This document shows, one piece after another, positions 15,563-16,009 of a DNA stretch of 64,000 nt. Source of the stretch: a virus; the IMG/VR virus record IMGVR_UViG_3300050019_000176, positions 1 to 64,000 of that record, one strand, 5' to 3'. The notes under the pieces are model-generated. The model made no database searches, was not told the DNA's origin, and saw nothing but the letters and a program-made list of their open reading frames with translations. A program made the position numbers and the translations under genes. The first letter of the stretch is position 1; the number at the start of each line of letters is the position of its first letter.

Positions 15563-15575
15563 GAAACCTGGGCTC

Positions 15576-15674
15576 CTATAAACTCGACAGGGATGATAGG
15601 TGCCCGGACGGACACCACAAATACTCGGCGGAGCGCCGATAGGAAAGAAATCCGCGATTGGAATTCTTGTGCAT
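15576..15674 (-). CDS. Leader peptide of tRNA operon 1 (MHKNSNRGFLSYRRSAEYLWCPSGHLSSLSSL)
   Basis: ATG 9 nt after the -10 box; ends 13 nt before tRNA-Ser. Confidence 0.7.
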   Translation of the reverse strand: MHKNSNRGFLSYRRSAEYLWCPSGHLSSLSSL

Positions 15675-16009
15675 TACGATTTCAGTATAGCACGGGTACG
15701 TTCGGTGTCAAGTGGTATACGTTTCGAGGCATGGATCGGCGCAAACATGCTTCGCATCCTGCGGCGCTCCTCGGCCCACTTCGGGTCCGCCAGTTCCCGG
15801 CGCCGGTCGCGTTCATTCGATATTTCTCCCAACCGATAGAGAGCCTGTCCCTCCCACGAACTTTCTCCGTGATCATCTTCATCCAGCATGCCGACGCCGG
15901 CGTCGAGCAATTCCTGTTCCAGGATATAGAGTTCTGCATCCGTAAAACTTGTGACTTTTGCTTGGTAGAAGTTAGGCATTACCGAGGCTCCGAGGGCCAC
16001 CCATACCAC
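15674..16009 (-). CDS. Hypothetical protein
   Basis: ORF; its TAA overlaps the leader 1 ATG. Confidence 0.5.
   Translation of the reverse strand: MVWVALGASVMPNFYQAKVTSFTDAELYILEQELLDAGVGMLDEDDHGESSWEGQALYRLGEISNERDRRRELADPKWAEERRRMRSMFAPIHASKRIPLDTERTRAILKS
15684..15711 (-). promoter_or_regulatory. Promoter of tRNA operon 1
   Basis: TTGACA-N16-TATACT-GAAATCGTA, same downstream box as the operon 2 promoter. Confidence 0.8.

Follow-up and report, generated by a model that had tools for sequence, protein, structure and literature searches.

The DNA analysed here, a window of 64,000 nucleotides, forms part of a 75.5-kb IMG/VR virus record with an estimated completeness of 77%, and this phage DNA is present in peat metagenomes. 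Genes for a large terminase and a portal protein can be recognised (Table 1), the remaining proteins of the window are mostly orphans, the nearest cultured-phage terminases share only 22-25% identity with the phage enzyme, and a search of IMG/VR for a close relative of the terminase (TerL) found none. The minus strand carries a tRNA array of about 31 genes in 5.5 kb, which falls under the published definition of a tRNA array unit or L-array, at least 20 tRNA genes at a density of at least 2 per kb (PMC4758250). A block of Ser, Tyr, Leu, Trp and Cys tRNA genes (block B) is headed by a short open reading frame, leader B, and a second short frame, leader A, stands ahead of tRNA-Pro further along the array.

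Table 1. Positions, in the coordinates of the window, of the two leaders, the tRNA array and other features discussed in the text
Feature	Position	Strand	Remarks
Upstream gene	15674..15979	minus	101 aa, no assigned function; one homologue, 56% identical
Promoter P2	15684..15711	minus	-35 TTGACA 15711-15706; 16-nt spacer with TG; -10 TATACT 15689-15684; 11/12 consensus matches
Twin box TATACTGAAATCGTA	15675-15689	minus	-10 and first transcribed bases; identical to the box of promoter P1
Leader-B ORF	15576..15674	minus	32 codons and TAG (15578-15576); peptide MHKNSNRGFLSYRRSAEYLWCPSGHLSSLSSL; ATG 10 nt past the -10
Hairpin 1	15625..15639	minus	TCGGCG ctc CGCCGA, within ORF codons 13-17
Hairpin 2	~15599..15616	minus	GGTGTCC gtcc GGGCACC; weak, not conserved
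Spacer	15563..15575	minus	13 nt, leader-B stop to tRNA-Ser(GCU)
tRNA array	10023-15562	minus	30 ARAGORN calls; interrupted by HNH genes
tRNA block B	14780..15562	minus	Ser GCU, Tyr GUA, Leu UAG, Leu CAA-like, Trp, Cys, Ser UGA, Ser GGA, Ser CGA (ARAGORN, Rfam)
Spacer motif (A)GATCTTTGACAA	~15459-15473		after tRNA-Ser(GCU)
Leu CAA-like gene	~15193-15287		sub-threshold in Rfam (27.8 bits)
tRNA-Ser(UGA)	14961-15045
Leader-A context	14578..14775	minus	P1 (box 14736-14750), ORF 14734-14642, terminator 14613-14588 and T tract, then tRNA-Pro
Arg(CCG) remnant	13192-13235		44-nt piece, 98% identical
Val(UAC) remnant	11524-11559		3' 36 nt, 97% identical to the gene in locus L097
Large terminase	32275-34500
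Portal	36596-38458

Leader B is read from promoter P2, one of only two promoter-like sites in 7.5 kb, which sits within the last codons at the 3' end of the upstream gene; the leader's ATG overlaps the TAA of that gene (TAATG). Viral and metagenome contigs searched with the upstream protein and its alignment yielded no related locus. The initial annotation had described a twin promoter with an identical box ahead of both leaders, and indeed the 15-mer TATACTGAAATCGTA has exactly two copies, one before each leader, whether the window or the whole 75.5-kb record is searched. That one 15-nt box, made up of the -10 and the first 9 transcribed bases, serves both phage blocks, whereas the related bacterial arrays described below use a different promoter for each block, hints at a phage-specific promoter or regulator site. 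Elsewhere in IMG/VR the box matched 88 stretches, which we take as chance; one of them belongs to an unrelated tandem gene duplication (L008).

The composition of the leader-B peptide is unusual. Seventeen of its 32 residues are Ser, Leu, Tyr, Trp or Cys (S8 L5 Y2 W1 C1), with Leu written as CTT, TTG, CTA, CTG and TTA and Ser as TCC (five times), TCA, TCG and AGT, so that our recount agrees with the residue and codon counts given earlier. At a background frequency of 0.25, 17 or more such residues in 32 have a binomial P of 6e-4, and none of the other 233 ORFs of 24-40 codons in the window reaches this enrichment. The enrichment is confined to the leader's own frame (17/32 versus 6/32 and 6/32 in the other two, p=9e-4), and the codons for this set crowd into the last third of the ORF, which ends LSSLSSL-stop. 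At the level of amino acids, then, the leader fits the Ser/Tyr/Leu/Trp/Cys block, as had been proposed. The further proposal, that individual codons sample individual isoacceptors, is rejected: all six Ser and Leu tRNAs receive a cognate codon in 46% of synonymous re-samplings of the peptide, so that the match at this level is no more than chance, and among the relatives of the leader synonymous codons drift freely. The five different Leu codons are themselves somewhat unexpected given the peptide (p=0.04 by synonymous re-sampling), and the TTA codon is without a cognate tRNA in the phage block. Of the nine cognate tRNAs reported for block B, eight are called by ARAGORN (Ser GCU, Tyr, Leu UAG, Trp, Cys, Ser UGA, Ser GGA and Ser CGA); the ninth, Leu CAA, is missed by that program and stands only as a sub-threshold Rfam match, with a CTCAAGA anticodon loop visible.

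The array has homologues in bacteria. Contigs of peat sequencing runs showed, besides the phage itself, only a relative about 88% identical over the Ser tRNAs and diverging at position 14776, and the bases common to it and the phage served as a search pattern, which recovered homologous arrays on 38 soil and peat metagenome contigs and two Ca. Solibacter MAG contigs, and zero matches in IMG/VR. With order-level genome searches included, such arrays are found in about 15 Bryobacterales (Ca. Solibacter) genomes, two of the more divergent ones on contigs of 1.4-1.6 Mb. The tRNA order in the relatives is Ser(GCU)-Tyr-Leu x4-Trp-Cys-Ser-Ser-(Ser), then a gap, then Pro/Gly/Thr onwards, and the flanks of the metagenome and MAG arrays are bacterial (a Trans_reg_C/TPR regulator, a PEP-CTERM protein, an alcohol dehydrogenase and a redoxin), with no protein similarity to the phage flanks. 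Between phage and bacteria, identity is 88-98% for single tRNAs and, at the protein level, 79% for one HNH gene; together with the common order, this indicates that the phage array is a copy, now diverged, of a long tRNA array from Bryobacterales chromosomes. It also suggests that the hosts of this orphan peat phage are to be sought among Ca. Solibacter-like Bryobacterales.

Several smaller features of the array can be noted here. The phage tRNA-Ser(UGA) shares 93-94% identity with the bacterial tRNA-Ser(CGA), the backbone being common to both and the anticodon switched, and tRNA-Ala is 92-94% identical between the phage and the bacterial arrays L097, L197 and L195. Array Leu tRNAs in loci L092-L128 have ARAGORN lengths of 74-79 nt, short for class II tRNAs. 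The Val and Arg remnants listed in Table 1 both adjoin HNH genes, consistent with tRNA genes having been split by insertion.

A test set beforehand was whether homologous arrays lack a Ser/Leu-rich leader, and they do not: every array with enough upstream sequence has one, except the aberrant locus L126, where the tail of the leader alone is left. The relatives' ORFs have 13-18 of 26-31 residues in the S/L/Y/W/C set and stop 8-33 nt before tRNA-Ser(GCU), except in the most divergent array, L194, where the stop lies 63 nt before the first tRNA. A sigma-70-type promoter precedes the ORF in all relatives except L126, and the start codon lies 6-9 nt past the -10 in all but L194 (21 nt) and L126, compared with 10 nt in the phage; from this spacing the start of leader B is predicted to be of the leaderless type. 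In L126 (positions 1102-1300) a leader-B tail (...QIKRLQFALSCTRLSYLSSRLYW) continues, in frame, the N-terminal helix-turn-helix part of a LysR-type ORF, and the locus is either a recombinant or a chimeric assembly. Two types of leader can be distinguished. Type-1 leaders include MATTTQRLHLTLSCPSSALSSLSLYW, MDTTAKRLQFSPSCPRLSSYLSSRLYW and MDTTTKHIRSLSCSCLSSYQLSLLLW, with 15/26, 14/27 and 16/26 residues in the set; type-2 leaders, from eight genomes, follow the pattern M-R-x-F-[FL]-S-R-G-L-L-S-Y-R-x-x-[VA]-G-x-x-W-C-x-x-x-S-L and have 13-16 of 26-27 residues in the set. The phage peptide, which is 54% identical to that of L209, joins features of both, RGFLSYR and WC of type 2 and CPS..LSSLS of type 1. 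A phylum-wide search with the type-1 N-terminus pattern returned noise apart from one genome already known.

These leaders evolve as though they were read by ribosomes. Indels among the homologues come in multiples of three, and across the eight type-2 genomes 18 of the 26 alignment columns at third codon positions are variable, compared with 7 of 26 at first and 8 of 26 at second positions (p=0.0013 for position 3 against positions 1 and 2 together). Changes in the LSRGLLSYR stretch are nearly all synonymous, and the Nei-Gojobori pN/pS, 0.37 for the leader frame, rises to 0.93 and 1.41 when the frame is shifted. The same holds when the phage is compared with each type-2 copy (0.41-0.55 in frame, 0.76-2.6 out of frame), at a divergence where pS is 0.66-0.85, near saturation, and pN 0.31-0.41. 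The type-1 set taken alone shows no coding signal (pN/pS of 0.65 versus 0.60 and 0.78), and changes within its main clade are 8 synonymous and 11 non-synonymous. Low in-frame pN/pS together with third-position variation argues, if indirectly, that the leader-B ORF is translated.

It could instead be supposed that the leader acts as an untranslated, structured 5' RNA in which the ORF is incidental. Hairpin 1 indeed recurs at the same position in the bacterial leaders of type 2, where its stem shows compensatory changes (A-U to G-C, C-G to U-A), a second frame is open as well in several lineages, and the type-1 set is without a coding signal. The three-base periodicity of variation, the low pN/pS in the leader frame only, the indels in threes and the fixed distance of the start codon from the -10 box are, however, hard to place in such a scheme, which we consider very unlikely. 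Compensatory changes within a coding ORF mean rather that RNA structure and coding constraint coexist in hairpin 1.

If the ORF is translated, its product may matter in its own right. Strong conservation of SRGLLSYR and WC by position suggests that the peptide sequence itself is of importance, which a pure counter of codons would not need, and one can envisage a micropeptide acting in trans, or an arrest peptide whose sequence is recognised, with a role unrelated to the supply of these tRNAs. About ten codons covering these two motifs are kept in eight Bryobacterales genomes with synonymous changes only. Between the subfamilies and the phage, by contrast, the sequence is poorly kept while the composition is kept, and the ORF is always wedged between a promoter and the first tRNA. 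A profile of 16 leader peptides had no match among 1.84 billion proteins, although at such a peptide length this result is uninformative. On this evidence we regard a micropeptide or arrest peptide of this kind as improbable.

The composition of leader B is best appreciated beside that of leader A. In the phage, one of the 30 leader-A residues belongs to the S/L/Y/W/C set and all 15 other amino acids are present; relatives such as MTHVFQFGTEVKGTQRRMNHDARAVT (0/26) and MTHRIQFGKDMQAVETRVNKTARAGP (0/26, again with all 15 other amino acids) show the same avoidance, and in every lineage leader A is complementary to leader B, with 0-6 set residues (Fisher p for leader B versus leader A from 1e-6 to 2e-3). 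The claim that the two leaders mirror in composition the split between the blocks thus extends to all lineages. The accompanying claim, that the blocks divide the 20 amino acids 5 + 15, is confirmed only in part: Val is represented only by a 36-nt remnant and Met was not found. The bias is again a property of the reading frame: across lineages the mean set fraction of leader B is 0.56 in frame versus 0.35 and 0.31 in the other frames, which shows that the enrichment is not a by-product of a pyrimidine-rich leader, and Ser plus Leu outnumber Phe plus Pro by 10-13 to 0-4. The correspondence is not perfect, in that L206 and L209 have lost Tyr, Leu or Trp tRNAs, yet those residues stay in the leader. 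As the lineages are homologous, the composition signal should not be counted as many independent events.

Leader A is itself a conserved ORF of 25-38 codons (L191, L195, L197, L206, L209 and L215). Its start codon in bacteria is GTG, 8 nt past the -10, but the phage and four loci of the main clade have ATG. A strong terminator follows each leader A.

No intrinsic terminator was found between the leader-B ORF of the phage and tRNA-Ser(GCU) (15576-15562), in line with the initial annotation, which had noted the missing U-tract terminator; the only terminator-like match lies inside the ORF, is weak and has no T tract after it in the relatives. The hairpins TCGGCG/CGCCGA and GGTGTCC/GGGCACC that it had listed are present. 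By eye, the 3' arm of the second can pair alternatively with ATAGGAGCCC at the stop codon, and this GGGCACC switch, weak and not conserved, is the sole antiterminator candidate in the phage leader. As a whole the phage leader folds no better than shuffled sequences (z -1.7), and no Rfam family, T-box included, matched 15563-15711 at E<=1. A Rho gene is present in 4/4 of the array-bearing genomes tested. The ratio of C to G is 1.45-2.67 in the terminator-less relatives and only 1.19 in the phage leader, which therefore makes a poor rut-like stretch. A pairing between the leader and tRNA-Ser, an "anti-tRNA" interaction, was predicted for the phage and two relatives and not for L097 or L197, and was dropped.

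Given a leader without a terminator, it might be asked whether leader B controls anything in the phage at all, or is a vestige captured from the host together with the array. Both promoters of the array have been replaced in the phage by its own identical box and the N-terminal part of the phage peptide has diverged, as a vestige would allow. Against this, the frame, length, start position and composition of the leader have been kept despite near-saturated synonymous divergence, and the bacterial type-2 leaders, which lack a terminator just as the phage leader does, are nevertheless under purifying selection. We accordingly give the idea of a functionless remnant little credence.

The most divergent array, L194 (genome G252), offers a view of how such a leader could work. 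The tRNAs of its first block are Leu, Cys, Tyr, Leu, a probable Leu (UAA) and four Ser, with Trp absent, and its leader, MRLSFSSLCSCLSSYYLLCGGALLTGDDVGP, has C, Y, S and L and likewise no W. The second block (Asn, Gln, Gly, Thr, His, Ala) is matched by a second leader with 18/33 residues from that set. Directly before the first tRNA lies a terminator of 11 bp with a GAAA loop and a U tract, whose 5' arm can pair with the ORF segment GAGCCUUGC, and a 1:2 helix spans the Ser, Leu and Cys codons (z -4.85, with the ORF embedded). When the RNA is masked up to a ribosome stalled at codon 10, the antiterminator replaces the terminator in the predicted fold. L194 is thus predicted to be a textbook attenuator, complete with 1:2, 2:3 and 3:4 pairings and following the logic of the trp leader. 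A search of 200 genomes for further leaders of the L194 type found none.

Taken together, these observations make it on balance probable that leader B is a translated mini-gene of the leaderless type, belonging to an undescribed family, that heads the Ser/Tyr/Leu/Trp/Cys block and acts in cis as a gauge of decoding. A mini-gene that is kept in the arrays of soil bacteria, is mostly written in those five amino acids and evolves as a translated sequence probably gauges the supply of their tRNAs. Ribosomes would load at or beside the 5' end of the P2 transcript and read 17 codons, concentrated in the last third, for the five amino acids of the downstream tRNAs, and their location would set the amount of the tRNA block that is made. 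In the phage, translation would be coupled to tRNA output without an intrinsic terminator: termination may depend on Rho, with stalled or queued ribosomes covering the leader as in tnaC; alternatively, the coupling could act through pausing at the conserved hairpin, or through 5' processing of tRNA-Ser and the access of RNase P, the stop codon being 13 nt from the tRNA, so that a ribosome held there reaches the tRNA 5' end. The crowding of set codons at the 3' end, the 13-nt gap between stop and tRNA, the C-rich, G-poor, terminator-less leaders and the presence of Rho fit a tnaC-like, Rho-dependent scheme.

More tentatively, and with rather less than even confidence, we propose a general scheme for the long tRNA arrays of soil Acidobacteria and of phages that borrow them, in which the array is split into blocks and a leaderless test mini-gene, composed of the amino acids that a block serves, acts as the gate to it. 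Slow decoding, whether from tRNA depletion, anticodon nucleases or translational stress, would switch on the spare tRNAs, and in the phage block, which has no terminator, ribosome occupancy would govern the access of Rho or the processing of the tRNA 5' end.

A simpler possibility is that the leader is translated in cis and senses nothing: early loading of ribosomes would couple translation to transcription, shield the leader of about 110 nt from Rho or nucleases, or set the 5' end for processing, the composition being merely inherited. Such a role would sit well with the missing terminator in the phage and most relatives, with the leaderless-type starts of most lineages and with a conserved internal hairpin that could be a pause site. 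It leaves unexplained why a frame-specific enrichment is kept across subfamilies of little sequence identity, why leader A has the complementary composition, and why in L194 a Trp-less leader is paired with a Trp-less block and equipped with a full attenuator; we hold it to be unlikely, if worth keeping in mind.

Ribosome-mediated attenuators are known from amino-acid operons and pheST (trpL, hisL, leuL, pheL, thrL, ilvL, pheM). Like them, leader B is a short promoter-proximal ORF with the relevant codons enriched towards its 3' end, and like thrL and ilvL it covers several amino acids; the classical layout is present in L194, and leader A has a terminator. It differs from the classical systems in that its targets are tRNA genes rather than biosynthetic or synthetase genes, in that five amino acids are represented in it and fifteen in its partner, and in having a leaderless-type start without a Shine-Dalgarno sequence and no terminator; because of this last point we do not file the phage leader as a classical attenuator. 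For the leaderless start, the leaderless leader peptides of Corynebacterium attenuators provide a precedent; such leader peptides are mentioned, without being called leaderless, in PMC3890552. Another comparison is with tnaC of the E. coli tna operon, which shares with leader B a leader peptide of about 24-32 codons and the lack of an intrinsic terminator, and in which, as could happen here in a host group that encodes Rho, a ribosome detained at the 3' end of the ORF would mask the RNA that Rho needs. Unlike in tnaC, the signal in leader B would be slow decoding and not a free amino acid sensed by the nascent peptide, a structured tRNA directly follows the stop codon, and a rut site and Rho dependence are putative. 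T-box riboswitches also tie expression to the state of a specific tRNA, as proposed for leader B, but in them a leader RNA, about 200 nt long or more, binds the uncharged tRNA directly, and an ORF is not required.

Among long tRNA arrays, the L-array of Anabaena is silent and is induced when translation is impaired, and its control has been ascribed to a set of direct promoter repeats and a presumed repressor (PMC8421152); the words leader and attenuation are absent from that paper. The phage array is likewise a long tRNA array, shared horizontally with bacterial chromosomes. A full-text search of the literature found no paper combining tRNA arrays with leader peptides and none applying attenuation to tRNA genes.

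If the proposed gauge is real, it would let the working tRNA pool feed back directly on the supply of spare tRNAs, and would be one possible way for long tRNA arrays to stay silent until translation is under stress. For phages, a tRNA array would become a self-tuning answer to a codon mismatch with the host or to tRNA-cutting defences. Ordinary reporters could put the idea to the test, since the family includes at least eight leaders from bacteria and one from a phage, some that have a terminator and others that lack it, and a leader and block that both naturally lack Trp, and in this instance the array also links an orphan peat phage to Ca. Solibacter-like hosts.

Two further observations concern the spacers of these arrays. 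The motif (A)GATCTTTGACAA, which in the phage follows tRNA-Ser(GCU), lies in L191, L195, L206 and L209 between the leader-A terminator and the first tRNA, and could be a processing site or an internal promoter. In L091 (positions 3550-5002) an insert of 1.45 kb with two small ORFs separates the Ser block from leader A, and one of these ORFs resembles, by eye, a PemK/MazF-type toxin, making it a candidate member of that group.
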